From the IMG/VR virus record IMGVR_UViG_3300029305_001596, positions 1-42,547 of that record: a DNA stretch of 42,547 nucleotides. One strand, given 5' to 3'. The translations under genes were made by a program, and so were the position numbers. Positions within the stretch are counted from its first letter, which is position 1; each line of letters begins with the position of its first letter. This document shows, piece by piece, positions 20,816 to 42,547 of this stretch. This stretch comes from a virus. The notes under the pieces are model-generated. The model searched no databases, was not told where the DNA came from, and saw only the letters and a list, made by a program, of their open reading frames with translations.

Positions 20816-21213
20816 GCCATCAGCCTCCATGCTTCCGTCAGCTCACTGGCCCGTCGGCCAACCTGTTCCTTGGTCAGCCCTGTCACAATGGGATGGTCGC
20901 CGTCCTCTGTCATCTGGTACACGTCCAGCGTCTTGCCGTTGCGTATGGCCAGTTTCTTGAGGTCGCTGGCCACAAAGAACTTGTCCTCTCCGCAGGGAAG
21001 AATCCCAGCGCTCTGCGGCATCTCCTCTGTTTTCACAGGTTCGGTCGCCTTGCAGAACCTCGGCTTTCGGGTGTTTCCGCGCCCAATGTACTTGCAAACG
21101 CTGCTGTAGCTGATCTCTGTCAGGTCTGCAATCTCCCGGTTGCTGTAACCCTCTTCACGAAGCTCAAGCAGCTCCTGTACGCTGATCTCTTTGGTAATGG
21201 TGCGTCCTCTCAT
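20812..21213 (-). CDS. HTH DNA-binding early protein (133 aa)
   Basis: N-terminal [32 protein letters not shown] (LuxR/resolvase-type HTH). Confidence 0.55.
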
Positions 21214-21785
21214 TTCTCAACCACCTCAACCAACTCTACGCGCTCGCAACGAATCTTGCCGTCCGTGTTGTAAGGCACACACACACCAGCCAACCATTCC
21301 CAACGAATCAAAACCTTCCAGATGACGCCTTTGTAGTTTCTCTTCACCCATTCAAGAGGAGCAACGTTGATACCACAGCCGCAAACATCGGTTCTGTTAG
21401 CGTTCACAACTTCCTCAATAACGGAACCTCTTTCGATCTTCCAATTGGGGTTGGGCATATACATGCTGCCAAACGTTTTGTAGGCGATATAGCCATGTTC
21501 AGTGCGTTCAAAATGTGCTTCCAGGTAATTGACCGCACTGATGAGACCTTTGGCATCGCTCAGGTTGGCATCGCTCAGGTTGGCACCGCTCAGGTTGGCA
21601 CCGCTCAGGTTGGCACCGCGCAGGTCGGCATCGCTCAGGTCGGCACCGCGCAGGTCGGCATCGCTCAGGTTGGCATCGCTCAGGTTGGCATGGCGCAGGT
21701 CGGCATGGCGCAGGTCGGCACGGCTTCCGCCTTCGCCTTTCAGCCAGTTCTCATGGTCTTCCAGAATCTTTTTGAGGTTCAACAT
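21210..21785 (-). CDS. Pentapeptide-repeat protein with unknown C-terminal domain (191 aa)
   Basis: About 13 tandem A(D/N)L(S/R)xA pentapeptides ([56 protein letters not shown]), then a Cys/Trp-containing ~110-aa domain. Confidence 0.9.
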
Positions 21786-21825
21786 GGTTTGATCATCCTT
21801 TCTATCATTTCACAAGCTCGTCGAG

Positions 21826-22200
21826 CCGCTGAGGGTGTCCCAGAACAACCGTTCTATTTCACCCGAGTCTTTTTCTGTGCTATACTGGTTCATCCCCTTA
21901 TCAAGGGAAGAAAGGAGAGATGCCTCGTGAAGAGCATTTTGACTTTGCCCGGTTCCCGACCAGCTGCAGGGAGCAATGCTGATGCGTAAGGGGCGTTAGG
22001 GGCAGAACCAGTACTGCCAAAGTGATCTTGGCCTACAGAACCGTAGTTGTTTTGCGGCCTTCAGCGGCTCGCGTTATCCCTGTGCCACGGGCTTCTGTTA
22101 CAGAGGTGCAGGCTGTCGGGTAAACAAATACTGGGATCGGGGTGTATCGTGAAACAACCACGGTGCATCCTGATTTTTTGTTCTGGGGCATCCTCAGCGG
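21826..22200. repeat. 375-bp non-coding cassette bounded by 23-bp imperfect inverted repeats (21/23)
   Basis: CCGCTGAGGGTGTCCCAGAACAA at 21826-21848 versus TTGTTCTGGGGCATCCTCAGCGG at 22178-22200. No ORF of coding quality lies inside. Confidence 0.85.
21858..21886 (+). promoter_or_regulatory. Plus-strand promoter-like element inside the IR cassette (TTCACC-17-TATACT)
   Basis: Read directly. Followed by AAAGGAGAG and a 20-codon ORF (21920-21982, MPREEHFDFARFPTSCREQC). Confidence 0.4.
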
Positions 22201-22218
22201 ATTGGGTTGATCCTTGGT

Positions 22219-22233
22219 CTACTTTGTGGACAA
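22219..22233. promoter_or_regulatory. Distal operator copy O4 (CTACTTTGTGGACAA) at the 3' end of the cro-like gene
   Basis: Shares ACTTTGTGGACAATG with O1. Lies about 240 bp from the main operator cluster. Confidence 0.5.
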
Positions 22234-22434
22234 TGATGGGAAAAAAAGAGCAAGGAAGCTCTCGCTGTCCTGAACTTCGATAGCTTTTGCTACCGCTTGC
22301 ATATCTTCTGCATCCAACTTTCGGCGACCATTCATCACATCACTGGCCTTCTTTCGCGGCCATCCCATAGCTTTTCCAAACGCTGTCGCGGACGGAAATT
22401 TATCAAGGATCGCGCCTCGAAGTGATACCTGCAC
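22219..22434 (-). CDS. Cro-like small HTH regulator (about 71 aa; start GTG 22434, TTG 22437 or GTG 22443)
   Basis: Divergent from the repressor gene. SATAFGKAMGWPRKKASDVMNGRR HTH. AAGGAGG SD. Confidence 0.6.
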   Translation of the reverse strand: MQVSLRGAILDKFPSATAFGKAMGWPRKKASDVMNGRRKLDAEDMQAVAKAIEVQDSESFLALFFPSLSTK

Positions 22435-22461
22435 CAACGTCACCTCCTTATTTTTTCAAGT

Positions 22462-22554
22462 CCACTTTGTGGACAATGTGATTGTAACACAGTCTGATAT
22501 CATTGTCAACCACTTTGTGGACAAAAAAGCGAAAAAAATTGACTTAGTGGACAA
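22462..22554. promoter_or_regulatory. Operator cluster O1-O3 of the lysis/lysogeny switch
   Basis: CCACTTTGTGGACAA at 22462-22476 and 22510-22524 (inverted core CCAC-TTT-GTGG). TTAGTGGACAA at 22544-22554. Confidence 0.7.
22481..22509 (-). promoter_or_regulatory. Early (lytic) promoter: TTGACA-17-TACAAT on the minus strand
   Basis: tgtcaa at 22504-22509 and attgta at 22481-22486. Flanked by O2 (abutting -35) and O1 (over the predicted start site). Confidence 0.75.
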
Positions 22555-22567
22555 TTTGTGTTATACT
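22539..22567 (+). promoter_or_regulatory. Repressor-gene promoter: TTGACT-17-TATACT on the plus strand
   Basis: Read directly. O3 lies in the spacer. 23 nt upstream of the AAAGGAGG SD of the repressor gene. Confidence 0.7.
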
Positions 22568-22590
22568 CGGCTCAAAAGGAGGTGCAAACA

Positions 22591-22950
22591 ATGCACACAG
22601 GCCAAAAAATAACCACGTTCAAAGAACGCCTGACCGATTTGTGCTATACAAGCGCCCAAAACGATACAGAAATAGCCAAGAGCTTGAATATATCAAAACA
22701 AACATTGAGCGCATGGAAGTGTGGTACTCGTTCTCCCAAGCAACCTACGATAGAATGCATTGCGCGGTACTTCGGGGTCAATATTGACTGGCTAATGGGT
22801 TTTGACGTACCAATGAAGAAAGAAGAAAAGCCCATCCCAGAGGATGAGCTGGATCGCATTCTTGTAAATGCCCTTATGGATCTTACGCCGCAGGAGACGG
22901 CTCAAGTGCTGGCTTTTGTTTCAGGGTTGAAAGCAGCTCGAAAAGCATAA
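22591..22950 (+). CDS. CI-like XRE-family repressor lacking a peptidase domain (119 aa)
   Basis: ATG 22591 lies 8 nt after AAGGAGGTG. HTH DTEIAKSLNISKQTLSAWKCGTRSP...IARYFGVNIDWLMG. Too short for an S24 autocleavage domain. Confidence 0.8.
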   Translation: MHTGQKITTFKERLTDLCYTSAQNDTEIAKSLNISKQTLSAWKCGTRSPKQPTIECIARYFGVNIDWLMGFDVPMKKEEKPIPEDELDRILVNALMDLTPQETAQVLAFVSGLKAARKA

Positions 22951-23029
22951 GCTTTTCTTCATAGGTTAGGGTCTTCACCAACGCTTCGGCTTCTTCTTCT
23001 CTCATCATCATATCCTCGCTTGTCGTCAT
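22883..23029 (-). CDS. Tiny acidic protein (48 aa, or 40 aa from the third ATG) downstream of a LexA-boxed promoter; antirepressor candidate
   Basis: MTTSEDMMMREEEAEALVKTLTYEEKLMLFELLSTLKQKPALEPSPAA. GAGGA SD before the ATGATGATG run. The 3' end overlaps the repressor gene antisense (22883-22950). Confidence 0.45.
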   Translation of the reverse strand: MTTSEDMMMREEEAEALVKTLTYEEKLMLFELLSTLKQKPALEPSPAA

Positions 23030-23050
23030 CGGCCTTGGTAGCGTGATTCC

Positions 23051-23080
23051 ATTATACGAACATCTGTTCGCATTTGTCAA
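23051..23080 (-). promoter_or_regulatory. Consensus promoter TTGACA-18-TATAAT with a Cheo-type LexA box CGAACATCTGTTCG in the spacer
   Basis: tgtcaa at 23075-23080, attata at 23051-23056, box at 23057-23070. The box matches the Gram-positive SOS consensus CGAAC-N4-GTTCG exactly. Confidence 0.75.
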
Positions 23081-23205
23081 TACCTTTCTTCGCGGTATTT
23101 CGCTGCCCTTCTCTTATCCCCTTCGATGATCCTGCATACCTTCTTCAGCGTTGCCGTGTCTTCCGTATCCATGGCCCAGTCCATAATCCTCTGCCTGTAA
23201 TTCAT
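23077..23205 (-). CDS. Tiny basic protein (42 aa)
   Basis: ATG 23205 lies 5 nt after GGAGGA. MNYRQRIMDWAMDTEDTATLKKVCRIIEGDKRRAAKYREERY. Its stop overlaps the -35 of the LexA-boxed promoter. Confidence 0.45.
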   Translation of the reverse strand: MNYRQRIMDWAMDTEDTATLKKVCRIIEGDKRRAAKYREERY

Positions 23206-23314
23206 AATCTTCCTCCATCCTGTTGGTTGATGTCGAAAATGTACCATGAAACGGGCGTTTCGTCTATAATCACTTCGTCCCACATTGTTTAACCATCTGA
23301 AACGGAGGTTTCCC

Positions 23315-23929
23315 ATGGAAGTTTCAGCAAAAATCATTGATCTCATCGTCGAAGAAATCAAAAAGCGCGGCACATCCTACGATGAAATAGCGCGGCTCTC
23401 CCTCCTCAGCAAGTCAACCATCAGCCGCGTTATGACGCAGAAACGTGCTTCGCCGTTCACCATTAAGCAGCTCGTAGCCTACCTTGAGATCGGTGACAAA
23501 TACCGTGCTGTCATGGGCGATGATGCCGAACCCATGCAGGGCTGCCAGATCGCCTCTGAAATGATGATGGAACTTGCTGCCGTCAGAAACGAATGGTCAC
23601 AGCGTCTGGATGATACTGTTGCAAATTATGAAAACCGCATCACCTTTTTCCACCAGCAATTGAAGTCCATTGCAGACGAACGATCCCGCGAACGCGAAGA
23701 CCAAAAAAGTATGCGTCAGCATCTAAAATCACAGATCACTCGCCTTCAGGATAATAATACTGAGCTTCTGAACCGCTTGGTCTCCGCAGAAGCAAAGGCA
23801 AACAAGTCGGAACTTCGTGCTGAGAAAAGCGAAGGCAAGCGCCACAGCATGTTCTGGGGCATGCTGGTCGTCATCATCGCTCTTTGCATCGCTCTTATCA
23901 TAGCCCTCAGTACCGACAGGATCTTTTGA
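23315..23929 (+). CDS. Membrane-anchored HTH protein: N-terminal HTH, coiled coil, C-terminal TM (204 aa)
   Basis: ATG 23315 lies 6 nt after GGAGG. SYDEIARLSLLSKSTISRVM HTH. Long heptad region. FWGMLVVIIALCIALIIALS TM. Confidence 0.7.
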   Translation: MEVSAKIIDLIVEEIKKRGTSYDEIARLSLLSKSTISRVMTQKRASPFTIKQLVAYLEIGDKYRAVMGDDAEPMQGCQIASEMMMELAAVRNEWSQRLDDTVANYENRITFFHQQLKSIADERSREREDQKSMRQHLKSQITRLQDNNTELLNRLVSAEAKANKSELRAEKSEGKRHSMFWGMLVVIIALCIALIIALSTDRIF

Positions 23930-23936
23930 GGAGGGA

Positions 23937-24260
23937 ATGCCAATGAAATATCCGTTTCACGCCTGGGTCAATTTCGGCAAGGGCGACAGCGCAGGCACTG
24001 ATATCGAAGTTGAACTGACGCAGGAAGAATTTGAGCGCATGGAATCTCTTCGCTGTATGCACCCGGATGATCGCCCGTTCTTCGATGACTGCCCTCATCT
24101 CTCGGATATCTATCACAAGGCGCATGCCGTTGCTGTTGCCCAGATCACTGCAGAGCAAATCGAATACGGAGAGCATGAGGCCTTCGACGAAGACGGAGAG
24201 CCATGGTCTGCAGACAGTGAATACAGTATTGGCGTCATGGCTTACTGGGAGTATGAATAA
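23937..24260 (+). CDS. Acidic hypothetical protein (107 aa; ATG 23943 has the better SD spacing)
   Basis: ORF track. Asp/Glu-rich (EAFDEDGEPWSADSEYS). Lies 8 nt after the preceding gene. Confidence 0.6.
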   Translation: MPMKYPFHAWVNFGKGDSAGTDIEVELTQEEFERMESLRCMHPDDRPFFDDCPHLSDIYHKAHAVAVAQITAEQIEYGEHEAFDEDGEPWSADSEYSIGVMAYWEYE

Positions 24261-24265
24261 AAGGA

Positions 24266-24760
24266 GTGTTTATTTTGCAAAACAGGAAACTCAACAAAGA
24301 GATCGCATACGCAAACGCAATTGCTAATGGACATGGCCTTAAATGGCACGGGTTCCTTATTTATTTTGTTATTTGGATGAACGCTTTGTACTGTTTTACT
24401 TATAATGTAATGCCCCTTCTTGACGGAACTGTATGGGGTGAGTATTACGAATTGATAAAGCAGTACAAACCAGACCTTTTTATTTCAGGCATTCTAATTG
24501 GGGTTGCTTACCTTATTCTTGTTGTTGGCTTAGTGAGGACGCGTTTTGCTCTTGCACAGTTTAAGAAAAATGCACCTAAAAAGCTCACGCGCTGTTATAT
24601 CATTTCGATTGTTCTGCCAGCAACCTTTTGGTTGTACTCAAGTGTGAGTATAAGTGAATTTATTCCAATGCCTTGGATCATAAGCGCGTTAGGCACCTGT
24701 TTTGGGGCCTTTATCAATCATATCTATTATAAGAAACGCAGCTACCTGTTCGTAAACTGA
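24266..24760 (+). CDS. Four-TM membrane protein in an A+T-rich island (164 aa; TTG 24275 alternative start)
   Basis: Hydrophobic segments WHGFLIYFVIWMNALYCF, ISGILIGVAYLILVVGLV, CYIISIVLPATFWLY, IISALGTCFGAFINHI. Sequence is visibly more A+T-rich than its flanks. Confidence 0.7.
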   Translation: MFILQNRKLNKEIAYANAIANGHGLKWHGFLIYFVIWMNALYCFTYNVMPLLDGTVWGEYYELIKQYKPDLFISGILIGVAYLILVVGLVRTRFALAQFKKNAPKKLTRCYIISIVLPATFWLYSSVSISEFIPMPWIISALGTCFGAFINHIYYKKRSYLFVN

Positions 24761-24781
24761 CATTTAGATGGTGATAAGTCT

Positions 24782-25885
24782 ATGCCACGTCAAACATTGA
24801 AACGCCGTGAAGACGGCAGGTTCCGTGTCAAGTACCATGGCATTCAGTTCTACGGCTCCACACAGAAGGAAGCCATGCAGAAGCGCGATGAATACAAAAA
24901 ACGTCTGGAAGCAGGCATCCTTGAAGAAAACAGCATCAAAACCTATGCTGCACGCTGGGTGTCCACATACAAAAGCCATGTTTCGCCAAACATGTACAAC
25001 ACCCACGTCCGCATCCTCAATCGCCTGTGTGATCATATCGGCAATAAGCCCATGGCTGATGTCACCACCATGGACCTGCAGTCGTTCATCAACACCGTCA
25101 GCGATAAATCACAGAAAACCATCAATGCATACCGTGACACCGTCAAAGGCATGTTCAAATCCGCTTTAGGAGACCGTGTAATCGCCTTCAACCCAGCCCT
25201 TGGTATCACACTTCCAAAAGGAACCAAAGGCTCCCACAGGGCTATCACAGCCGAAGAACGGCAGCTTCTCTTATCTGTCCAGCATCGCATCCGCCCAGGT
25301 GTTCTTACCATGCTGTATGCCGGTCTGCGTCGCGGTGAAGCAATGGCTCTTGACATTGACCGTGATGTGGATTTTGAATCCAAAACCATAACCGTCAGGG
25401 AAGCTCTCCGCTTTGAGGGCGGCCATCCTGTCCTCACCAACACCAAAACAGAGGCAGGTGAGCGCACCATCCCCCTTATGCCCATTTTGGTGGAAGAGCT
25501 TAAAGGCAGGCATGGATTGCTCATGGTAGATGTTGATGGCAACCTCATGTCAGAATCAGCTTTTGACCGTGCGTGGTCTTCTTATATCACCACATGCGAA
25601 ACCACCCTCAATGGCTGTGCAAAAAGATGGTACGGCAAAAAGAAAGAACACCAGAATCTGGAACTTCCCCCATGGCGTTCTGTTGATATCCGCCCTCATG
25701 ATCTGCGCCATTCCTTCTGCACCATGCTATATGATGCTGGCATTGATCTGAAAACAGCGCAGAAATGGATGGGGCATGCTGATTATTCCATGATCATGCG
25801 AATCTATGCGCACCTCACAGAAGAAAAAGAAGCCGAAGCCAAAAAAGCTCTTCTGGGGTTCAAAACGGGGTTCAACGCTCAATGA
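24782..25885 (+). CDS. int: Tyrosine integrase (367 aa)
   Basis: C-terminal catalytic region RPHDLRHSFCTMLYDAGIDLKTAQKWMGHADYSMIMRIYAHL (R..HxxR..Y). Adjacent to a tRNA-derived attP. Confidence 0.95.
   Translation: MPRQTLKRREDGRFRVKYHGIQFYGSTQKEAMQKRDEYKKRLEAGILEENSIKTYAARWVSTYKSHVSPNMYNTHVRILNRLCDHIGNKPMADVTTMDLQSFINTVSDKSQKTINAYRDTVKGMFKSALGDRVIAFNPALGITLPKGTKGSHRAITAEERQLLLSVQHRIRPGVLTMLYAGLRRGEAMALDIDRDVDFESKTITVREALRFEGGHPVLTNTKTEAGERTIPLMPILVEELKGRHGLLMVDVDGNLMSESAFDRAWSSYITTCETTLNGCAKRWYGKKKEHQNLELPPWRSVDIRPHDLRHSFCTMLYDAGIDLKTAQKWMGHADYSMIMRIYAHLTEEKEAEAKKALLGFKTGFNAQ
25855..25875. repeat. Arm-type repeat pair GGGGTTCAA x2 left of attP (inside the integrase 3' end)
   Basis: GGGGTTCAA at 25855-25863 and 25867-25875. 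The same 19-mer GGTTCAAAACGGGGTTCAA recurs at 26092-26110. Confidence 0.6.
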
Positions 25886-28897: not shown

Positions 28898-31800
28898 TTA
28901 TTTCTTCAGCCAATTGGCCTCAAAGTTGTAGTCATCATACAGCCCGGTCTGGTACAGGATCCGGCGAATCTCCTTGCGCTGCGCTTCGCTCGCCTGCTTG
29001 TAATGTTCCTTCATGAAGCTGGTAACAGTGCTCTTGATGGAGCTTGCTTTGGTACCGGCATACTCAAGGCCCTTTACATAGCTGCCAAGGTTCTTGTAGT
29101 TGCCACGGCTCACTTCGTCGGCAATTGATGATTTATTGATGCTTTTCTGTTTGGTCGAAACAGTCTCCATTGCAGTTTCATAGCCTTCAGTTCCCTTGCC
29201 AAAAGCCTCGGCAACAGCAACGCTCTTGGCCAGATCCACAATGGCTTTCACCTTCTTTGCCTTTTCGTCATCGCTCAACGCCTGGTATTCCTTGCTGCCG
29301 ATCAGTTCTTCCACGCCAGTCACCGCAATCTCTCTGCCGTTTGCATCGGCGTAGGTCCCGCCCTTATACCACAGTTCGCCATAACGTTTCTTATACGCTT
29401 CTTTCTGGAAGGGGTCCAGCGTTATGCTGTTTCCCTTGCTGGTCAGCGTATCCTTCGTTCCGCTCAAAGCGTCAACCGGCAGCATGTCGCTTGCGCCGGT
29501 CGCTTCACTCAGCCGCAGCAGTTCATTCACAACGGCGTCATCTCTTGCATCTGTCGTGGTAAAGGGGTCAATGAAGTTGCGCCAGTTTTCCTTGGTCATC
29601 ACGCTCTGGCCGGTCACATCCACCTTCTCAGGCAGCAGCTCATTACGGATCCAGGGAAGCTTATTGATCAGTCCGCTCTTCAGTGCAGCCATCATCACAT
29701 TCTTGTCCTTGGTATCACGCACATACGGGTCCACAGCGTTGGCAAGCTGACTGATCAGTGCAGGAACGTTCTGGCTTAAGGCGCTCTCAATCAGCGTGTC
29801 ACGGATGTTTTCCGATGTGCTGCCGTACCCTTCAAAGATATCCTTCAGTCCGCTCATAAAACTCGCGTCCAGGATCTGATCCATGCTGGCTGTCGTTGCG
29901 CTCATCATAGCATTCCATGCATCTTCGTCATCTTCAAAAATGCTGTTGGCAGCAACGCCCATAATGATGGGAGAAACCGCAGGCGCAAATGTGCTCAGGC
30001 TCATGTATTCATTGGTCAAAGGATTGTAAACATAGGGCGTGTACTGCGCACCTACAGCCGTTTGCAATCCGCGCTTCTTTGCATCATCCTCGTCCTGCGT
30101 ACCCATTTTGATCACGCCCAGGCTGCCAAGCATCATGCCCAGGCCAACCATCGCACTGCCGGTCAGCCCTCGCGCCATCCCTTCCACAAACCGCTGCTGT
30201 TCAAAGGTTTCTCCGCGCACTGCTCGCATGCCGTGCTGTATGGCCGTCTGTGCAAGGCCCATGGGGCTGTACTGCCACATGCGTTTCACAATGTTGGTAG
30301 GAACGCCGGTAAACGGCATAATGTAGTCCAGTGCATCGCCGATTCCCGGTATGCGTTTCATCGCGCTCAGCGCGTCCCGCACAGCGTTATCCTCGGTAAA
30401 AGTGGCAAAGTTGGCGTCGTTCTCCGCACGCTCCACCATCTGGTCATAGGTCGGTGTGGTTCCGTCCTCGTTGTGAAGAAGCCCACGATCCAGCAGCTTC
30501 TGCTGTTCGGAAAGACTGTTCACATACGCCTTCTTCCAGAAGTTTCGGTCACCAAAGCTCATCAGGAAGCTTTCCACGTTGCGGAAGGTTTCCAGCGCAT
30601 TACTCTGATACACACGCCCTTCACGTCTGGTGTTGTACTTGTCTCCCTGCCTGTTTTGCACTTCCGCCTTGTCCACAAAGAAGTCACGGAAAGTATCCTT
30701 TGTTTCCTGTGCAAAGGCCTTCCATCCGTCAGCACGTTCCTTCATGTTCAGGGATGCCACTGTACGCTGCCCACTTGCTGCGCCTATGGCCGTGTCAAGA
30801 CCAACGGCAATTCCGTGGCTCACTGCGTTCATAGTATTCTGCGCCACGTTGCCAATCACGTTTCTCATGGGGCTGGTCAGTGTGCCAAGCATGCTCATGT
30901 ATCGCCATGTACGCAGCTTTTCGCGGCCGGATACGGGCGTAATGTTGCCAAACGCCTCGTAGGCACGGGCAATGGCAAGGTCAGCATCTCTTCCTCCGCT
31001 TTCAGCACCAGCACCAACAAACAGGCCAAGCTGTGCGCCAATGTAGTCAAGGTCGGCTGTCGTTACCACTGCAAGTCCTTCGTTCATGTACTCAAGGCGC
31101 TGCACAAGAGTAAGGCCGTTCATCTCATTCATGGGATACGGTGTGGCCAGAATAGCCTCTAACATTCGCTGTTTCACCGTGGCACGGTTGTAGTTGATGC
31201 CAGGGCGACGTTCCTTGCCAAGTTTGTACTGATCAATCAGTGCTCTCTGGTATCCGTTCAGTTCAACGCCATAACGGCTGTCGTAAGAAGCCTGTTCAGG
31301 TTCCGGCAAACCAAGCAGCTTACTGCGCACCTGTTCAGCTGCGCTATCCATAGCCTTCTTTTTGGGTGCATGCGTCCGCAGCTCCTCCTGAAGGCTATTT
31401 TCAAGGCTGCCTGCAACCATTGCCTTTGCGCCAGTGGGGCTCATCTTGCTGAACAGTTTTCGTGCCTGCAGCTCCTGGCCTGCCTTGGTGCCCTCGCGGT
31501 TGTACTTGCTGGCAATGGCAAGCAGCGTTTCTGCGTCACCGTTGTGGTTTGCAATCGCCATTATCACATTGGCTTCCGCAGTATCGTCTGCACTGAAACG
31601 TTCCAGCCCAAGCAGTCTGTCGCGTTCCTGCTCAAAACCGTTTTGCACAATGCGGTTGTACCCGCGCTCTGCCTGCTCCATGTTGGTGTCAATCTCATAG
31701 TTCAGTTCTTCCGGGTTCTGGTACATTTCCTGCTTCAGCCAGTCTGGCATGGCTTCGCTTTGCTGCACGCTCTGCCTGGCAAACTGTCTCTCGCCCATGG

Positions 31801-34800
31801 GGCGCTGCACTTGCTGTTCAGGTCCCATTGCCGAAAGCTGTATGTACTGCCGGATCATGTCGCGCAGCACGTCCTCGCTGGGCAGGCTGTACTGGGTGCG
31901 CGGATGCTGTTCCTTGTATTCTCGCACAAAACGCTCCACAATGTCCTGTGCAACAGGAAGGGTGTTTGCACCACCCTTGTACTCGCCAAGCACGCGCATG
32001 GCCTCTTCCATGTTGAAATTGGGCTGCACAGCCTCCTGCGGCGCGCCAACACCATCATTGTCGTACATCTTAAAGTCGATCAGCGTCTTCCAGTACCCTT
32101 CGGGTGCTACCCAGTGGCCATCTTCGTCTTTGCTCAGGAACATGTCAAACTTCGGAATGCGTCCGTCCTCTTCGCACATGCGAAGGTATGTCCGGGCATT
32201 CTCATCGCCGCTCTTGCTGTAGTCCCAGTAGTCAATGGGGTAGAAGTTTTCTTCCACGTTCTTATACTTGAATTTTCCGTTCTTGTACTGGCCAACCACG
32301 CGGCGTTCGTTCTGCCAGTCGGTAAAATTCTCATATTCGTCCAGCCCCATCAGCTTCAGCTCACGCTCGCCCCATCCGCTCTTGTGGAAGGGGATGATGT
32401 AGTCGAGCTGCGGATCCTTCATCGCGGCAAGCACATGCTCCCGGCTCACGCCAACAATAATGGTGCCAACATTCTTGCTGTACCGTTCACGCAGCGCAAG
32501 CGCATCGGCAATGTCCATGCCCTCAGTCGGGCTGAATGCAAGCGTTCCGTCAGGGTTGAGACCGTTTCCTTCAGCAATCAGGCTCAGGTTGATCTTGATG
32601 CCTGTGTCACCAAACACAGCCGCAAAGTTCGGCACCTTCGTATACGCCTGGCTGGTAAGTCCCTTGGCGCTCATATCCAGCACAGCCTGCATCATGTCGA
32701 TCAGATGCGGGGTCTCAAAATCGCTGAAGCTCTGCACGCGTAAGCCGCCGATTTCAGTTATCTTCTTGATCTGGCCCTTGGTAAGGCTGCGAACATCGCC
32801 TCGGTATTCCGTGCGCAGCTGCACCACCTTCGGGTTGTTACTGCCCTTGCTGTTCATGTTGTCAATGAAATCCTGATAGGCTTTCGGGTGCTCGTGGCGC
32901 AGTTTCTCAAGACCGTCGCTGGTGGTCACCTCATCAAGCCTTGGCTTGTATTCGCCGTTGTAGCCCTCCAGCCATTCACCGGCAAACTTGCCAAGCTGCC
33001 TGCGTCGGCTCTCCACATAACACACGCCGCACGGGCTTTCATAGCCGCTTTCCGCCAGCATGTTGCGAAGACCAATCAGATCATCGCTGGTAAGCACCGT
33101 ATTGGGCAGCAGATGCTGAATCGCGTCAAAGGTTCCCTGATACAAAAGACGCTTGGCGCACAATGTACTTGCGTCCAGCGTCTTCACATATTCCTGATTT
33201 TGCTTCAGCATCACCTGGTTGTCGGCTGCAATGTAATCCAGACGATCCTTGTCAGCGGCAATCGTTGCAGCAACGCTGTTCACATCGTCGATCCAGCGTT
33301 CCACCTTTATGGCGTCAAAACCCTTGCCCAACAGCTGCTGCCTTGCTGTTTCCTTTTCCTTTTCCGTCCAGCTGGAAAGGCTGTAGTCCTTGGCAACCGT
33401 GCCGGAAGGGGTCTCTTCGGCAATCACATTGCCGTCAGAAGTTATTTCTCGGTTTTCAGCGGGTACTTCGCCACGATCTCCCTGGCGAATGCCTCGCGCA
33501 TTTCGTCCTGCTCCTGCTCCGTTTTCCCCTGAAGCTTCATTGCGTTTTCCGCCTTCACGGAAATCGGTACTTTCCTCTCCATACACGCTGTGAAGTATGC
33601 TTCGTTGCGTTTCAAGGTCGTATCCCTCCTGCTCAAGTTCTATCGCATCCTGCTCTATAGCGTTTACCAGTTCAACGTTCTCTGCATCGTATACCTCAAG
33701 CACAGCTTCAGGTTCGCCGTTTGCATCAGTATACACCAGAACATTGTCCATTGCAACAAGGCTGCCGCCGTTCTTCCGCTCCACAAACTGGTATCCACGG
33801 TAGTTCTTGTCGTTCATGTTGGAACGCAGCCGTGCGTACTCGTTGGGGTCAAGCAGGTCAGGAAGTGAATACTGCAAACGCTCCCCTGTCACATCGCCTG
33901 CTTCAAGCCCGTATTCAGAAAGGTCGATAGCGCCTCCCTTTCTGGGGATGGGTGTGTATGCTTCCCTGATCTTTGCTTTTTCAGCTTCGGATGCGTTCTG
34001 GTATTCCTCGGATGCCATCACTTCCTCCAGCTGCTGGCGAAGAATCGCATCCGTGTCAGCATCGTCAAGAATGCGGGTTACCTTCATTGCACCAGTGATG
34101 ATCCAAGGAACTGTATCGGGATTGGGGTTCGTGCGGTATCTGTAATAACCGGCAGTTCCGTCCTCCTCACGAGGCAATCTGGGCAAACCAGCAAGAGAAT
34201 GCTGGAACTTGCCATTTGCATTGTAACCGTAGCTCATAGCCTCTTCCTGATAGTCGTGATCAGCTGCGCACTCGCATTCTGCCCACACAAAGTTTTCGGG
34301 GAACAATTCCTTCTTCCCGATTTCGGGGTTCAGCCTGTTAAACTGTGTTGCCTTGGGAGAATCGCCAAGGTGCCAACCGGGTCGGTATGCAAGCTGCGTC
34401 TTGCCCGTGTTGGTTCCTTTGCCGCCAGCCTGTACCTGCGGTCGGCCAGTCTTGCTGTCTGCTCCGCGAGGCGCTGCATCTGCATTCAACCAAACGCCAA
34501 CAGGGGTCGGCTCGCCACCCGGATTTGCAACCATCGGCGGGTACAAACCGGGCTTGTTCTTAAAAACAGCAAACACCTTGTAGCCCTTGATGGTGTGCAC
34601 AGGGTCAGGTTCCTCACGAAGCGAATACTGAATGCCGTCTGTGGGGAACTCTCTCTGCTTATTTTCTGCACCCAGCGCCGTTTCAAACAGCTCTCTGGCA
34701 CGGTCCAGCTCGCTGTAATCCTCGCGTGCAATGCCCGTCAGCTTGCTGATGAAGTTCTTGATCGTCTCAAGGATCCTGCGTGCCACACTGGGCTTTTCAG

Positions 34801-37800
34801 CGGCCAGACGATTGATACTCTCCTCATCGCCGTACAGGATCTTGCGGGTCAGGTCGGCTACGATCTCGCGCCGCGCCTCATCCTCAGTAAGCGGCGTTGC
34901 ATCCACAGTCGGGTCCAGTGCAGCCATCATCTCAAGCTGCGTGTTGTATCGCTTCATGCGTGCAGCAATATCCCTGTCAAGCTGCCCTTCATCACTGCCT
35001 GAATACGCAATGCCAATCAGAGCGTCTGCAAACTCCTGATAGCTTTCGCTCTGTTCCATGCGATGGGTCAGTTCGTGCAGCACCGTGCCGTACAGCATGT
35101 CGCTCTGCGTGGCGTTCTGGTCAATCTCCACCTTGCCGGTTCTGGCGTTGTAGCTGCCATTATAACGCAGCGCAGTACCTCCCTTGGTAGTGTCCACCAC
35201 GTCAAACTGCACGCCGTACTTCTTGGTCAGCTGCTGCATAAACCTGTTGCGGCTCTCCTGTGCTTCAGGGGTCATCTCTCGCTGGATCTCCCTGTAGATG
35301 GCGTCGATCCGTTGCTGTTCTTCAGGCGTTGCATCTGCAAAGTTGCTGCTGGTAAAGTCAGCAATGCCCATTGCCGTCACGTTGCCGCTTTCACGGGCAG
35401 CGCTGCGCACGGCAGCACGCTCTGCCTTGACAATCGCATTTTGGTTGGCAACGGCAGCCAGCTCCGTCTGCGCCATCGCCAGTGCGGTTTCCTGCACATT
35501 AGCCTTGGCGGCTTCGTATTCACCCTGTGCTTCCTGTGCCTCGCGCTGGGCAGTGACCATCTCTTCCTGCGCCTGGTTCTTTTCTTCGATAACTGCCAGC
35601 ACTTCGTTGGTCGCCTTGGGGTCGGCAGGGTTTTCGTTCATGCGCCGGGTGGCGTCGGCCAGCTTCTGCTGCGTCAGTTCTTTCTTGCGCTGTGCGCTTT
35701 CAAAACGATCTGCTGCCTTGCTCACGCTCTTCTTTGCCGCTTCCACAGCAGATCCATCAATGGCTCCGCTGGCCATCATTTCGCCTGCCTTGGCTTCGGT
35801 CACCACTTTGGTGGCGCGTTCACGAACCGACTCAGCAATGGTCGGATCCTGCAAATCCTGCGCCACCGCATTCACCAGCGTATTCGCATCTTCAGCAGTG
35901 ATGGCGGATTTCTTCATCAGGCTTTCGGCAACCTTCACGCTGTTGGCATAGGAGGGGAACACAGACACAGAACTGCCAATGGAGATCAATCCGCCCATCA
36001 GCGCATCAGCAGTCAGCTCACGGCCATATTCCTGCCAGTCGCGCTCCAGCGGATTCTCTCCCTTGATCAGGCCCGTCACAGCCTCGGTCACAATGTTTTC
36101 CGCAGGCTCCTGCACCGCTTCGTTCACAGCCGTCTTGCCAATGTTCACCATGAAATGACCAAACATCTTGCCCCAGCGCGAAAGCCCGGCCACCACACTG
36201 GAACCGGGAACAAGGGCCAGTTTCTCCACAACCTCTTCCACATAGGGCATGTTGCTGGCCTCGATGTTTTTCAAAATACCGTCCCACTGGCTCATGGCAG
36301 CCGTCACCGCAGCAGCGCCCAAACCGGCAGCAGCGCTTGTCAGGTAGTCTTCACCTTCGTTGTAGCTGTCCCACATTTCGCGCAGTCCGCTCTCTGCGGC
36401 AAAGGGAGTGCTGCTGATCATACGGTTCAAAAACTTCAGTTTATCGCCAAACACAGCAGTGGATGCATTGCCAAGCGCCTTTGCAACGCCGCCCATCTGC
36501 TGCATCTTGATCATCTCACTGCCAACGGTGCCAGCCATAATCTCAAGCGGCGTTCCGTTCTCCAAAAGCACCTCGTTGTGCCCAGCCAGTGTGGTGTTCA
36601 TTTCATTGGCAAATTCAGCGCCGTAATCGGCTACCTCTTCATTGCCAAAAAGCTTTCCTGCACCGGTAATGATGCTGCCAACAAACTTGTCCACCAGGTC
36701 AGTAATGGCATAAGCCGTGTGATCCAGCGCCCACATCGCAACATTGGAAACGCCAATGCCGTCGTTGTTCTGCGCTTCCACCAGCTTGCCGTCCATGCCA
36801 AGCACACCGTCCAGCCAGCCAATGAACCCGCCAAGCTCTTCATCGCCAATGTCGTAGGCTTCCTTCAGCAGCATCTCATACTCAGCCAGCTCCACGCGAA
36901 CATCGGGATCCATCATTTTTCTGGGCAGATCACCGGCAATCGCCATCTGCATCAGCGCAGCGGTCGCCTTCTGGCTGCCCTCACTGTGCACCATGTCCTG
37001 TATGTATTCGTCGCCGCTTTGCTTCACAGCGCCTTCGATCAGCTGAAACTGGTACTGGCATGCAGTGCGGTAGTCGTTGTTGTACAGTGCCTCGTCGATC
37101 CCTGCATACAGTTCTTCTTTCGTCATAGAAGGGCTTTTAACAGGGGTTTCAGAAAGGGATTCGGGTGTTAAAGCCTCAACTTCCGGCGTGGGTTTATAGC
37201 CCTCCTGCGTGCGTTTTGCGGCACCGTCAGTATCGGTGCGCATCACAGCGTCATTGCCGCTCTTTGCGCCTGCCCACAAGCGCCCCTCGCTGTAAATGTC
37301 AGCGGGGGGAGTTGCGTACAGGCTCTGCTTGCTGGCCATCACACCAGCGCCCGGTATGGTGCTTTCGTCAATCAGACTGCCACGGGCATTCACCTGGGCA
37401 ATCTTTTCCGCGTTCACCGCAAGGCCAAGCGCTGCTTCGTTCTTGGCCGCATTGTCCTCTGCCCACTTGGTGTCCCACTGCAATCGGATGCTCTGTTCCA
37501 GCGCTTCTTTGTCAAAGCTGATCTCATGCAGCGGTTCCACTTCCATCTTGTCCAGATGAGGCGTGCGGCTGGTGCCGTCAGCGTTGTTGAAGATGAAATG
37601 CACCGCTTCATCCGCGCTGTCAAATCCACCGCTGCGGATCGTGTCCTGCATCCGCTTGTGGAAGTCGGCCAGTTCACGGTCGTATGCCTCCGTAGCCAGA
37701 AAACTCTGGTAGGTATCGCGGAAGGCTCGCTTCTCTTCATTGGTGCCTCCGGCCAGCACCTTTCGGTAGTTCTGGTCAAAGTAATCCTTGCTGGTGGCTT

Positions 37801-37984
37801 CTTTGCCAAAACGCTCACGGGCAGCAGTGTATCGCGGGGCACTCAACAACCTGCTCCGCTCAATCTCCGCCGCTTTTGAAGGACGATTCGTCCCAGAAGT
37901 CCCATTGCTGGCTGGTTTCTCCCAGCCTTCTTCCTTTGCTATGCTCTGCAGCCGGTTCAGTGCTTTCTTGAACTTATCGTCCAT
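28898..37984 (-). CDS. Giant multidomain (polyvalent-type) protein, 3,028 aa, with an HExxH metallopeptidase-like motif; probable virion-delivered protein
   Basis: Uninterrupted ORF. ATG 37984 lies 5 nt after GAGGG (GTG 37996 alternative). GTVLHELTHRMEQSE. Coiled coils, Gly/Ala-rich hydrophobic helices, and several large blocks I cannot assign. Confidence 0.85.
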   Translation of the reverse strand: MDDKFKKALNRLQSIAKEEGWEKPASNGTSGTNRPSKAAEIERSRLLSAPRYTAARERFGKEATSKDYFDQNYRKVLAGGTNEEKRAFRDTYQSFLATEAYDRELADFHKRMQDTIRSGGFDSADEAVHFIFNNADGTSRTPHLDKMEVEPLHEISFDKEALEQSIRLQWDTKWAEDNAAKNEAALGLAVNAEKIAQVNARGSLIDESTIPGAGVMASKQSLYATPPADIYSEGRLWAGAKSGNDAVMRTDTDGAAKRTQEGYKPTPEVEALTPESLSETPVKSPSMTKEELYAGIDEALYNNDYRTACQYQFQLIEGAVKQSGDEYIQDMVHSEGSQKATAALMQMAIAGDLPRKMMDPDVRVELAEYEMLLKEAYDIGDEELGGFIGWLDGVLGMDGKLVEAQNNDGIGVSNVAMWALDHTAYAITDLVDKFVGSIITGAGKLFGNEEVADYGAEFANEMNTTLAGHNEVLLENGTPLEIMAGTVGSEMIKMQQMGGVAKALGNASTAVFGDKLKFLNRMISSTPFAAESGLREMWDSYNEGEDYLTSAAAGLGAAAVTAAMSQWDGILKNIEASNMPYVEEVVEKLALVPGSSVVAGLSRWGKMFGHFMVNIGKTAVNEAVQEPAENIVTEAVTGLIKGENPLERDWQEYGRELTADALMGGLISIGSSVSVFPSYANSVKVAESLMKKSAITAEDANTLVNAVAQDLQDPTIAESVRERATKVVTEAKAGEMMASGAIDGSAVEAAKKSVSKAADRFESAQRKKELTQQKLADATRRMNENPADPKATNEVLAVIEEKNQAQEEMVTAQREAQEAQGEYEAAKANVQETALAMAQTELAAVANQNAIVKAERAAVRSAARESGNVTAMGIADFTSSNFADATPEEQQRIDAIYREIQREMTPEAQESRNRFMQQLTKKYGVQFDVVDTTKGGTALRYNGSYNARTGKVEIDQNATQSDMLYGTVLHELTHRMEQSESYQEFADALIGIAYSGSDEGQLDRDIAARMKRYNTQLEMMAALDPTVDATPLTEDEARREIVADLTRKILYGDEESINRLAAEKPSVARRILETIKNFISKLTGIAREDYSELDRARELFETALGAENKQREFPTDGIQYSLREEPDPVHTIKGYKVFAVFKNKPGLYPPMVANPGGEPTPVGVWLNADAAPRGADSKTGRPQVQAGGKGTNTGKTQLAYRPGWHLGDSPKATQFNRLNPEIGKKELFPENFVWAECECAADHDYQEEAMSYGYNANGKFQHSLAGLPRLPREEDGTAGYYRYRTNPNPDTVPWIITGAMKVTRILDDADTDAILRQQLEEVMASEEYQNASEAEKAKIREAYTPIPRKGGAIDLSEYGLEAGDVTGERLQYSLPDLLDPNEYARLRSNMNDKNYRGYQFVERKNGGSLVAMDNVLVYTDANGEPEAVLEVYDAENVELVNAIEQDAIELEQEGYDLETQRSILHSVYGEESTDFREGGKRNEASGENGAGAGRNARGIRQGDRGEVPAENREITSDGNVIAEETPSGTVAKDYSLSSWTEKEKETARQQLLGKGFDAIKVERWIDDVNSVAATIAADKDRLDYIAADNQVMLKQNQEYVKTLDASTLCAKRLLYQGTFDAIQHLLPNTVLTSDDLIGLRNMLAESGYESPCGVCYVESRRRQLGKFAGEWLEGYNGEYKPRLDEVTTSDGLEKLRHEHPKAYQDFIDNMNSKGSNNPKVVQLRTEYRGDVRSLTKGQIKKITEIGGLRVQSFSDFETPHLIDMMQAVLDMSAKGLTSQAYTKVPNFAAVFGDTGIKINLSLIAEGNGLNPDGTLAFSPTEGMDIADALALRERYSKNVGTIIVGVSREHVLAAMKDPQLDYIIPFHKSGWGERELKLMGLDEYENFTDWQNERRVVGQYKNGKFKYKNVEENFYPIDYWDYSKSGDENARTYLRMCEEDGRIPKFDMFLSKDEDGHWVAPEGYWKTLIDFKMYDNDGVGAPQEAVQPNFNMEEAMRVLGEYKGGANTLPVAQDIVERFVREYKEQHPRTQYSLPSEDVLRDMIRQYIQLSAMGPEQQVQRPMGERQFARQSVQQSEAMPDWLKQEMYQNPEELNYEIDTNMEQAERGYNRIVQNGFEQERDRLLGLERFSADDTAEANVIMAIANHNGDAETLLAIASKYNREGTKAGQELQARKLFSKMSPTGAKAMVAGSLENSLQEELRTHAPKKKAMDSAAEQVRSKLLGLPEPEQASYDSRYGVELNGYQRALIDQYKLGKERRPGINYNRATVKQRMLEAILATPYPMNEMNGLTLVQRLEYMNEGLAVVTTADLDYIGAQLGLFVGAGAESGGRDADLAIARAYEAFGNITPVSGREKLRTWRYMSMLGTLTSPMRNVIGNVAQNTMNAVSHGIAVGLDTAIGAASGQRTVASLNMKERADGWKAFAQETKDTFRDFFVDKAEVQNRQGDKYNTRREGRVYQSNALETFRNVESFLMSFGDRNFWKKAYVNSLSEQQKLLDRGLLHNEDGTTPTYDQMVERAENDANFATFTEDNAVRDALSAMKRIPGIGDALDYIMPFTGVPTNIVKRMWQYSPMGLAQTAIQHGMRAVRGETFEQQRFVEGMARGLTGSAMVGLGMMLGSLGVIKMGTQDEDDAKKRGLQTAVGAQYTPYVYNPLTNEYMSLSTFAPAVSPIIMGVAANSIFEDDEDAWNAMMSATTASMDQILDASFMSGLKDIFEGYGSTSENIRDTLIESALSQNVPALISQLANAVDPYVRDTKDKNVMMAALKSGLINKLPWIRNELLPEKVDVTGQSVMTKENWRNFIDPFTTTDARDDAVVNELLRLSEATGASDMLPVDALSGTKDTLTSKGNSITLDPFQKEAYKKRYGELWYKGGTYADANGREIAVTGVEELIGSKEYQALSDDEKAKKVKAIVDLAKSVAVAEAFGKGTEGYETAMETVSTKQKSINKSSIADEVSRGNYKNLGSYVKGLEYAGTKASSIKSTVTSFMKEHYKQASEAQRKEIRRILYQTGLYDDYNFEANWLKK

Positions 37985-37992
37985 CGGAACCC

Positions 37993-38886
37993 TCACTTCT
38001 TCTTTTTGTCCAGAATACTTGCAGCTTTATTGGCAGCCAATCCGCTCTTGCTGCTCACCTTGCTTGTCAGGCTCTGCATCGGGGTAGGCGCGGCAGGCGG
38101 TTTCTGCAGCGCGTCATACAGGTTCTTTGCCGCTTCCTTGTTGTATACCTGTGCATTGGCAGCCAGCGCGTCAACCAGCGTGTTCACAGGCTTGCCGGTG
38201 TAGGACGCGGTGGTGGTTTTCTTGTTTCCGCTTCCGCTGCTTCCGCCGCCTCCGCTGCTTCCGCCGCCGCCATACTTGGCGTTGAACTCTGCCTGCCACA
38301 TCGCATACTCACGGTCAGCCAGTGCTTCGGCGTTCTGATATTCATATATCTGCATCGCAAGCTGGTTGGCATCCTGCCCACGGCCATACTGCTGGTTCTC
38401 CAGTTCATCCAGGTAGGCCAGAATATCCGCCTGCTCCTGTGCGCTCAGGCTCTCCAGTTCAGCCGCCAGCTGGCTTCCAAGCAGCGCCTTCTGCTGCTGC
38501 AGGTTCTTGGTCTGCGCCGCCTGCGTGTCCAGTATTGCCTGCTGCGCTTCTACGCCCTGCATGCCAATGTTGGCCAGGCTGGCCGCATTGTAGCTGCTGC
38601 GCTGCATGCCGCGGCCAAGGCTTGCACGGTCAAAGGCACTGACTGTCTGCGCGTAGTTCTTCGCGCTCTGCTCAAGTTGCTTGCCGTATGTCGCATCAAG
38701 GCTTGCAAGCTGCTGGTCTATCAGCATTGCATTGGTATCATGCTCCTGCTGCGCTGCCAGCTCTTTGGCGTCGTATACCGCGCCATATCGGTCCTGCGCT
38801 TTCTTGCGCATTTCTTCTTCGGTCAGTGGAGTGTAGCTCTGCCCGTTCAGTTTGGCAAGCAGCTGCTCCAGGTTGGAACTGGCCAT
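37993..38886 (-). CDS. Coiled-coil protein with Gly/Ser linker (297 aa), unknown late function
   Basis: ATG 38886 lies just after the holin stop. Gln/Ala-rich heptads. GGGGSSGGGGSSGSG linker. Lys-rich tail. Confidence 0.6.
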   Translation of the reverse strand: MASSNLEQLLAKLNGQSYTPLTEEEMRKKAQDRYGAVYDAKELAAQQEHDTNAMLIDQQLASLDATYGKQLEQSAKNYAQTVSAFDRASLGRGMQRSSYNAASLANIGMQGVEAQQAILDTQAAQTKNLQQQKALLGSQLAAELESLSAQEQADILAYLDELENQQYGRGQDANQLAMQIYEYQNAEALADREYAMWQAEFNAKYGGGGSSGGGGSSGSGNKKTTTASYTGKPVNTLVDALAANAQVYNKEAAKNLYDALQKPPAAPTPMQSLTSKVSSKSGLAANKAASILDKKKK

Positions 38887-42524: not shown

Positions 42525-42547
42525 ACGTTCACACGCTCCCATCCATC
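42421..42547. repeat. Terminal overlap identical to 1-127
   Basis: Read directly. Confidence 0.95.

Follow-up and report, generated by a model that had tools for sequence, protein, structure and literature searches.

How does a temperate phage respond to DNA damage when its repressor carries no self-cleavage domain? The question is raised by a locus in the IMG/VR virus record IMGVR_UViG_3300029305_001596, which was analysed over its whole length of 42,547 nt (hereafter, the window). In this locus, a promoter with a LexA box precedes a very small open reading frame (ORF) that runs, on the opposite strand, into the 3′ end of the gene for a short CI-like repressor. The arrangement is very probably a variant of the AimX-AimC/SinI-SinR principle, with a small antirepressor under LexA control. 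In its full form the explanation that we favour, and consider probable, is that of an antirepressor module that SOS sets off in a temperate phage from gut Clostridia, and in which LexA gates a small decoy of the repressor's C-terminal domain. The window represents the complete circular genome of this phage, 42,420 bp in length, since bases 1-127 recur exactly at 42421-42547 as a 127-nt terminal direct repeat.

The first component of the module is the promoter. On the minus strand TTGACA is followed by AATG, the box CGAACAGATGTTCG and TATAAT, with a spacer of 18 nt. In a scan for the sigma-A consensus the promoter reaches 12/12 and is the top site within 21500-25000; transcription would start near 23044. 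The box is an exact match to the Bacillota LexA operator pattern CGAAC-N4-GTTCG (core GAAC-N4-GTTC), of which it is the single occurrence in the 42.5-kb window. In dinucleotide-preserving shuffles the mean number of exact boxes per window is 0.02, and 2 of the 100 shuffles contain any at all. If one mismatch is allowed, 0.9 boxes are expected, which is unremarkable by itself. The significance therefore lies in the nesting of an exact box in a perfect promoter and not in the box alone. The Clostridial LexA operator is known to be GAAC-N4-GTT(C/T) (PMC4234289). The box overlaps the core promoter elements, and it has the same position in nine other loci described below. As it occupies the promoter spacer, bound LexA would block initiation, and the promoter is expected to be inducible by DNA damage.

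The second component is the small acidic ORF. Its longest form, 23029..22883, encodes 48 aa, and the in-frame ATGs upstream at 23008, 23011 and 23029 would give 41, 42 and 48 aa, respectively. The probable start is the third ATG of the MMM run, at 23005, giving 40 aa, because the homologues align there. The last 68 nt of the ORF are antisense to the repressor gene. The first-pass annotation had proposed a consensus minus-strand promoter with an exact CGAAC-N4-GTTCG box, an acidic ORF of 40-48 aa behind it, and an antisense overlap of 68 nt with the 119-aa repressor gene. The promoter scan (12/12, sole exact box in the window) and the ORF coordinates bear out the first and the third of these; the ORF exists as well, with the correction that the homologues favour 23005 over the proposed start at 23029.

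Homologues of the small ORF are present in L127-L134 and P0083-P0090. They align gap-free over the first 30 residues with the consensus MD+EEAK.LI.GLTY.EKLLLRELLL.L.Q. Among 5.8 billion protein clusters there are 8 homologues, all of them unnamed and free of Pfam domains. A Pfam search with the ORF itself matched no family, including the Tum, AntC, Gifsy and SPC32H Ant families, and a search of IMG/VR with the small-protein alignment yielded no usable pattern at first and then no relative. AlphaFold2 (AF2) models the 40-aa protein with helices at residues 2-12 and 15-30 at a pLDDT (predicted local distance difference test) above 90, followed by a disordered tail. The small protein is thus predicted to be a two-helix hairpin.

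Is the arrangement peculiar to this phage? Ten contigs with the same phage show 100% identity throughout this region and are for that reason uninformative on variation. More distant relatives of the repressor, at 44-71% identity, were found in metagenome assemblies, and eight contigs were examined (L127-L131, L133-L135). All eight have, on the opposite strand downstream of the repressor gene, a LexA-box promoter, a Shine-Dalgarno sequence and a small convergent ORF. Their promoters consist of TTGAC(A/C), 3-4 nt, (C/A/G)GAAC-N4-GTTCG and an abutting T[A/G][T/C]AAT, then a Shine-Dalgarno sequence of the GGAGG type; the exception is L135, in which the box lies just after the -10 hexamer. The small ORF has 46-56 aa in these relatives and overlaps the repressor 3′ end by 104-122 nt. 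The same layout recurs in L037 and L084, two IMG/VR phages whose 103-aa repressors are unrelated. In an alignment of the promoters of ten loci (the window, L127-L131, L133, L134, L037 and L084, with L135 left out), the invariant parts are TTGAC, GAAC, GTTCG, T..AAT and ATG, in contrast to the four central bases of the box, which change freely. Such a pattern is to be expected if selection preserves the contacts with LexA and RNA polymerase. As a negative control, metagenome relatives that share the repressor's helix-turn-helix (HTH) domain and have other C-terminal domains show no LexA box downstream. No Cheo box was found in 36 IMG/VR loci with repressors 28-47% identical, which are uninformative for the family of the window.

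The repressor's C-terminal domain, EEKPIPEDELDNELINLLSDLTPQE..V..FVAGLKAAR, stands behind at least four different, unrelated HTH domains (P0067, P0071, P0074, P0081; alignment A3). One of these combinations, that of P0074, occurs in L131, where this C-terminal domain is accompanied by the same LexA-box promoter and an overlapping small ORF. L130, L133 and L135 have a different C-terminal domain and a correspondingly different small protein. Judged from these alignments, the C-terminal domain and the small ORF move together across HTH domains, in what looks like domain shuffling of an induction cassette.

Selection on the ORF was assessed by Nei-Gojobori counts over six loci, expressed as the ratio of nonsynonymous to synonymous differences per site (pN/pS). 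For codons 1-30 the pN/pS is 0.46 in the ORF's own frame vs. 1.21 and 1.51 in the two alternative frames of the same strand. The core of the small ORF (TY.EKLLLRELL) lies opposite the last 11 codons of the repressor, and here the pN/pS is 0.31 in the small frame vs. 3.35 in the repressor frame; this repressor tail is variable in the relatives and absent from the repressor of the window. Codons 31-40, which lie opposite conserved repressor helices, are unconstrained (pN/pS 1.15). These counts are good, not overwhelming, evidence that the first 30 codons are under purifying selection, and they indicate that the overlapping genes alternate in which one is constrained along their common DNA. They also bear on the view that box and ORF came together by chance, or are a relic, and play no part in induction. 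Most gene callers do skip the ORF, which is called on 2 of the 10 contigs displayed. However, the exact box, of which chance would supply 0.02 per window, is nested in a 12/12 promoter, ten diverged loci retain the whole arrangement and purifying selection acts on the ORF, so that an arrangement by chance seems extremely improbable.

The reach of the transcript appears to be short. A hairpin with a T-run, resembling an intrinsic terminator, lies 33 nt beyond the stop codon of the small ORF (hairpin proper 22850-22829, folding energy -14.6 kcal/mol, z = -2.1). All its pairs are kept in five relatives by one-sided G-U changes, with zero compensatory double changes. The hairpin is the antisense of the codons for KPIPEDEL in the repressor linker, within the most conserved part of that linker (EEKPIPEDELD); the conservation of this segment may thus reflect a requirement of the RNA, of the protein or of both. 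If the hairpin terminates, the transcript probably measures about 220 nt and reaches no further than ~130 nt into the 3′ end of the repressor gene. A terminator-like structure just past the small-ORF stop would thus limit the antisense reach.

This has consequences for the proposal that the effector is the RNA, or transcription itself, with the convergent promoter lowering repressor synthesis by antisense pairing or RNA polymerase collision. The transcript must indeed cover no less than 68 nt at the 3′ end of the repressor gene, or ~130 nt if it reaches the hairpin; an overlap of 68-122 nt is kept in all close relatives including the window, and the promoter has a perfect consensus. Nevertheless, selection acts on the amino acids of the ORF, including the part that lies outside the repressor gene or opposite its dispensable tail, and the conserved terminator-like hairpin would restrict the antisense reach. 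Moreover, L092 and L043/L094 have a LexA-box promoter and a small ORF with zero overlap with the repressor gene. In phi106 and phiW23, two phages of the AimX-AimC type discussed below, a recoded overlap has no effect, while start-to-stop mutants lose the response although the full antisense RNA is still made (10.1101/2025.11.23.689978). Finally, reduced synthesis alone would not quickly clear the existing repressor. We regard this proposal as unlikely, although antisense RNA may make a minor contribution. Of the first-pass suggestion that antisense transcription of the repressor gene is involved, the overlap has thus proved real, whereas its role as the effector is weakened by the terminator, the non-overlapping L092 and L043 loci and the phi106/phiW23 mutants.

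The repressor fits the favoured explanation, an antirepressor acting as a decoy, in that it shares its build of two domains with SinR, AimC and the phi106 repressor. Pfam finds only HTH_3 and Phage_CI_repr in it, and no Peptidase_S24 at E <=0.1. The AF2 model, built with 51 homologues and numbered from residue 2, has a pLDDT of 90.7 and consists of an HTH domain, a 12-residue linker and C-terminal helices at 83-95 and 99-117. With a C-terminus made of two helices spanning 83-117, it does not match the layout of a lambda-type self-cleaving CI, which has a C-terminal S24 (LexA-like) domain bearing an Ala-Gly cleavage site and a Ser-Lys dyad. Full-length Foldseek matches are SinR in the SinR-SinI complex (1b0n_A), AimC of BMBtp14 (9iaq) and the phi106 repressor-AimX complex (9sf2). 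In profile searches of the PDB, the repressor matches 9iaq_A (4.3e-8) and 9sf2_A (4.7e-7), and these alignments continue through the C-terminal domain. For the HTH part the best PDB match is TP901-1 CI, which scores above AimC. The C-terminal domain alone has no significant match among PDB profiles, and none to AimC; SinR is matched in sequence via the HTH domain only (E = 1e-3).

The small protein resembles this C-terminal domain at the level of sequence profiles. Comparison of the small-protein profile (A1) with the C-terminal-domain profile (A2) gives an hhalign P of 4.9e-5 over 33 columns, and the residues paired in both profiles read L..L.(D)LT(Y/P).E......L... L(K/R). In a column-shuffle control, 0 of 300 shuffles reach the observed 20.7 (mean 7.9, standard deviation 1.8, maximum 15.3). 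The small protein and the C-terminal domain are both predicted by AF2 to be two-helix hairpins. When the small protein was compared with its own repressor by Smith-Waterman alignment, L037 and L084 gave shuffle p of ~0.0015 and 0.005, respectively, against the repressor C-terminus, and the comparison was not significant for L092, L043 and L038. The idea that palindromic DNA produces the protein similarity as an artefact was rejected, as no consistent inverted repeat has its centre at the required place.

This likeness also helps to judge whether the small protein could be an SOS-induced accessory factor that acts on the host instead, either on LexA or RecA, like gp7 of GIL01 or Listeria AriS, or as a modulator of cell division or DNA repair. 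A small, acidic, helical protein behind a LexA-box promoter would fit such a role, many different first genes stand behind the same promoter type in viral contigs, and no known family is matched. On the other hand, its location strictly follows a single type of repressor C-terminal domain, irrespective of the HTH domain, its profile resembles that very domain, and the repressor has no other visible route for sensing damage. A host-directed factor is, in our opinion, very unlikely.

The mechanism by which the decoy would act can be outlined as follows. In the lysogen, host LexA would sit on the CGAAC-N4-GTTCG box and keep the consensus sigma-A promoter blocked. DNA damage would activate RecA, LexA would cleave itself and the promoter would fire. 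The resulting transcript of ~220 nt, ending at the hairpin inside the repressor gene, would encode the ~40-aa two-helix protein, and this protein is predicted to contact the repressor's C-terminal domain and to replace the second repressor subunit there, as in SinI-SinR and AimX-AimC. Repressor oligomers would then dissociate and lose their hold on DNA, the TTGTCCACAAAGTGG operators would be vacated, and the operon of the cro-like gene and the other early lytic genes would be derepressed. The operator motif has 9 matches vs. 1.3 expected. A fourth copy is located at 22219-22233, at the 3′ end of the cro-like gene and ~230 bp off, while no TTGTCCACAAAGTGG copy is close to the LexA-box promoter. 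The distant fourth copy, together with the fact that the N-domain of TP901-1 CI is the best PDB match, suggests that an oligomeric repressor may form a loop as in TP901-1.

It could be objected that the promoter serves mainly to read through the repressor gene into the cro-like gene and the early operon, bypassing the promoter that the repressor controls, and that the small ORF is incidental. The early operon is indeed only ~600 nt downstream on the same strand. Still, the conserved hairpin and T-run lie in between, the ORF is conserved as a protein, and operators that remain occupied could block elongation; this scheme appears highly improbable. The coordinates of all elements are collected in the table.

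Table. Features of the lysogeny locus and its neighbourhood in the window.
Feature	Position	Strand	Remark
-35 hexamer TTGACA of the candidate LexA-controlled promoter	23075..23080	-	TTGAC invariant in 10 aligned loci
LexA (Cheo/SOS) box CGAACAGATGTTCG	23057..23070		In the promoter spacer, adjoins the -10 hexamer
-10 hexamer TATAAT	23051..23056	-	Read from the sequence and the promoter scan
Shine-Dalgarno sequence GAGGA, 7 nt ahead of ATG 23005	23013..23017	-	GGGAGGA at the equivalent place in relatives
Small acidic ORF, 40 aa, MREEEAEALVKTLTYEEKLMLFELLSTLKQKPALEPSPAA; candidate antirepressor	22883..23005	-	Homologues, selection, predicted fold
Intrinsic-terminator-like hairpin and T-run	22819..22850	-	9-bp stem, AGCUCAUCC-UCUG-GGAUGGGCU, inside the repressor gene
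CI-like repressor, 119 aa: XRE HTH, linker, two-helix C-terminal domain	22591..22950	+	Gene callers agree
Putative repressor operators TTGTCCACAAAGTGG	22462-22476, 22510-22524; degenerate 22540-22554		Within the divergent promoters
Divergent promoters	minus 22509-22481; plus 22539-22567	-/+	Intergenic, flanked by the repressor and cro-like genes
cro-like HTH gene, 71 aa from GTG 22434 (ORF-list start 22443; 71-74 aa)	22219..22434	-	First gene of the early/lytic operon, divergent from the repressor
Second small ORF, 42 aa, Shine-Dalgarno sequence GGAGGA; ends at TGA inside the -35 hexamer	23077..23205	-	Called on 17 contigs
204-aa protein: N-terminal HTH, coiled coil, C-terminal transmembrane helix	23315-23929	+	Follows the module

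Several observations weigh against the decoy explanation. The window's own pair of proteins is not more similar than shuffles (p ~0.47), the similarity being one of profiles only, and Foldseek with the 40-aa model gave no match. No sequence similarity to AimX or SinI was detected among PDB sequences including the partner chain of 9sf2 (E <=10, two chance matches). The selection statistics come from six related sequences and non-independent pairs. Because the genes overlap by 68-122 nt, their co-inheritance and co-variation do not amount to independent evidence of an interaction. The host, finally, would be an uncultured Clostridia bacterium on the basis of the large terminase (TerL) match alone: TerL is 75% identical to MBP3647976.1 from a metagenome-assembled genome (MAG) of a Clostridia bacterium, and the nearest isolated phages infect Bacillus and Paenibacillus.

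The closest known counterpart is the AimX-AimC system. Aframian et al. demonstrated with lexA(ind-) and box mutants that the aimX transcript of phi106 is repressed by LexA (10.1101/2021.09.20.460909). Kabel et al. found that AimX, a protein of 29-80 aa whose gene sometimes overlaps aimC, binds the C-terminal oligomerisation domain of AimC, forms heterodimers with it and abolishes operator binding; the authors themselves drew the analogy with SinI/SinR, described the AimX proteins as highly divergent and noted very few aimC/aimL homologues outside arbitrium systems (10.1101/2025.11.23.689978). The extended arbitrium phages with AimX-AimC-AimL are phi106, phiW23, Wbeta, BMBtp14 and Waukesha92 (10.1101/2025.11.23.689978; PDB 9iaq, 9sf2). 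Both systems have a short HTH repressor with no autocleavage domain (80-140 aa in the arbitrium phages), divergent from a cro-like gene, and a very small ORF (29-80 aa there, 40-48 aa here) convergent with the repressor 3′ end; in the phi106 family, as here, a LexA site lies just upstream of the small ORF. The differences are also evident. AimR and AimP are lacking in the window, where the minus strand upstream holds only the 42-aa ORF with no signal sequence, and the same is true of the relatives; the promoter therefore seems to stand alone, with LexA as the only visible input. The host here would be an uncultured Clostridia bacterium, whereas there it is Bacillus, and the overlap, 68-122 nt, is much deeper than the 30 bp of phi106. 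In sequence, the small protein shows no detectable likeness to AimX, and the matches of the repressor to AimC are carried mostly by the HTH domain.

With SinI-SinR (PDB 1b0n) the locus shares the idea of a small helical antagonist that resembles the repressor's C-terminal helical hook in sequence and structure and forms a heterodimer with the repressor where the repressor oligomer would otherwise stand; its counterpart here is the profile likeness between the small protein and the C-terminal domain. In contrast to the phage locus with its convergent, overlapping genes, SinI-SinR is a chromosomal biofilm switch with tandem genes and no LexA control. No sequence homology was detected of the small protein to SinI, nor of the window's repressor to the C-terminal domain of SinR.

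Sar-SroF of SPbeta and phi3T is likewise a small Firmicutes-phage antirepressor with an SOS-box promoter and a repressor that has no LexA-like domain; its B. subtilis-type SOS box was verified by box mutation and mitomycin C (10.1101/2025.11.27.690993). However, SroF has an integrase-like fold, Sar mimics DNA and covers the DNA-binding surface, the genes are arranged in another way and there is no overlap with the repressor gene. The first-pass annotation had cited the logic of LexA-controlled antirepressors from Proteobacteria; with the closer precedents in Firmicutes (AimX-AimC of phi106 and Sar of SPbeta/phi3T), it is no longer confined to them. Its more general expectation, that induction passes through host LexA and a small antirepressor and not through self-cleavage of a repressor with an S24 domain, has gained support from the layout in eight relatives and two unrelated phages, purifying selection, the profile likeness, the phi106 analogue, and a Pfam search and AF2 model that agree on the absence of S24.

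Among proteobacterial phages, Tum of 186, AntC of N15 and Ant of SPC32H are LexA-repressed antirepressors that act with non-cleavable phage repressors. These phages, like the Gifsy phages mentioned below, use CTGT-N8-ACAG SOS boxes, their antirepressors are mostly larger proteins and the genes have other genome positions. To our knowledge, none of the proteobacterial LexA-controlled antirepressors overlaps its repressor gene in antisense. The logic is the same as in the window and the proteins are unrelated (no Pfam match). In the Gifsy phages, too, host LexA represses the phage antirepressor gene (GfoA/GfhA) and the repressor is non-cleavable (PMC3121763). A further Gram-positive case is GIL01, a tectivirus of Bacillus thuringiensis, in which LexA is the repressor of the lytic promoters and gp7 the co-repressor (PMC4551915). 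GIL01 likewise couples its induction to SOS by way of host LexA and Cheo-type boxes, with a small phage protein taking part, but in the window the CI-like repressor is a distinct protein that has operators of its own, and the predicted role of LexA is to gate the small gene only. A literature search retrieved no description of such a module in Clostridia phages, and a blastn search with the lysogeny module against 50,697 phage records returned zero matches.

As to the surroundings of the module, the minus strand carries nearly all genes of the window. The early operon headed by the cro-like HTH gene encodes a pentapeptide-repeat protein, an exonuclease, a replication initiator, a DnaB-like helicase and a methyltransferase, and the terminase, major head and portal genes come after it. 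The lysogeny block is on the plus strand and includes the repressor, the 204-aa HTH/coiled-coil/transmembrane protein, two small proteins and a tyrosine integrase; from 23315 to 25885 all genes are on this strand (the HTH and transmembrane protein, a 107-aa ORF, a membrane protein and the integrase). By its predicted domains, the 204-aa protein would be a membrane-anchored regulator. Its counterpart in the relatives is a gene of 152-228 aa with an HTH_26 match in most of them. The pentapeptide-repeat protein (191 aa, 21210-21785, minus strand) contains 12 tandem 15-nt units at 21522-21754. Pentapeptide-repeat proteins are able to mimic DNA, and this one may have an anti-defence or topoisomerase-protecting function. 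In the late region, a single ORF encodes 3032 aa (28898-37996, minus strand).

The second small ORF upstream of the promoter, reported in the first-pass annotation as a 42-aa ORF (23205..23077) with a strong Shine-Dalgarno sequence and as a possible partner of the acidic ORF, exists and is gene-called. A basic ORF of 26-31 aa is found at the same position in L128, L129, L130, L131, L133 and L134 (e.g., MSDRRKERKQPHTRYPVGNPPEVFHIKVQY), and these upstream ORFs often stop at the TGA within the -35 hexamer TTGACA. The 42-aa ORF has no obvious homology to them. The possibility that it is an AimP-like pro-peptide was rejected for want of a signal sequence and of an AimR. As a separate observation, the stop codon and tail of the repressor carry a short palindrome, GAAAAGC-TTAT-GCTTTTC in the window (22945-22962) and GGAGAA(G/A)CTTCTCC in the relatives (L128 ~2935-2955), within the conserved EEKLLL codons of the small ORF.

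Promoters of this type also occur elsewhere. A promoter-pattern scan of genome contigs found four unrelated sites (umuC-like genes, a YolD-like gene and unknown genes) and zero relatives. A promoter one base off that of the window (TTGACAAATGCGAACAAATGTTCGTATAAT) was seen at 475-504 of L115, from the rumen MAG RUG11791 of an uncultured Clostridiales bacterium, where it precedes an unrelated 87-aa ORF. In IMG/VR loci L038-L112, CGAAC-N4-GTTCG-TATAAT promoters stand ahead of several other recurrent first genes: an ImmA/IrrE-like HEXXH metalloprotease (L061, L101), an 80-aa MTAEQIIIQTVKQLP family (~10 loci), an EVFFIESNRII family (7 loci), YolD/UmuC-like genes and lexA itself (L097). They may represent further SOS-gated induction devices. 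A sister family with ORFs of 47-48 aa (M..LE..L..(L/M)(T/S)..DR..LIRLLR.L...) was noticed in L147, L152, L154, L160, L164 and L174. These ORFs converge with the genes of related S24-less repressors, the overlap being ~90-100 nt; no LexA box was found at these loci, whose promoter regions have repeated ..TCTTCC.. motifs instead. The family suggests the same decoy design on a different input.

A broader and more tentative proposal can be made. The oligomerisation domain of the repressor and its own SOS-gated decoy could form one portable, physically interlocked induction cassette that has been grafted onto at least four unrelated HTH domains; the decoy would have arisen by duplication or mimicry of the C-terminal domain and would then have been overprinted on the dispensable tail. 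In such a cassette, which we put forward as a possibility and with some doubt, ~100-120 bp would encode the C-terminal domain, the opposite strand would hold most of the decoy and the terminator, and the LexA-box promoter would be attached. If this is true, any XRE repressor could become SOS-inducible by gaining one small module, and the cassette would account for the way in which many gut Firmicutes prophages with S24-less repressors perceive DNA damage, via genes that are invisible to annotation.

Many repressors of Gram-positive gut prophages are short XRE proteins with no self-cleavage domain, and their response to DNA damage, including that caused by antibiotics, is usually unexplained. 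For one family of Clostridia phages, the locus described here offers a concrete and testable explanation of SOS induction with S24-less repressors. It would carry the AimX-AimC principle, which until now has been linked to arbitrium signalling in Bacillus, over to phages that have no peptide signalling and to another bacterial class. The locus is also a clear case of a functional small gene, overlapping another in antisense, that gene callers miss, and its promoter is a compact, possibly portable SOS-responsive part.

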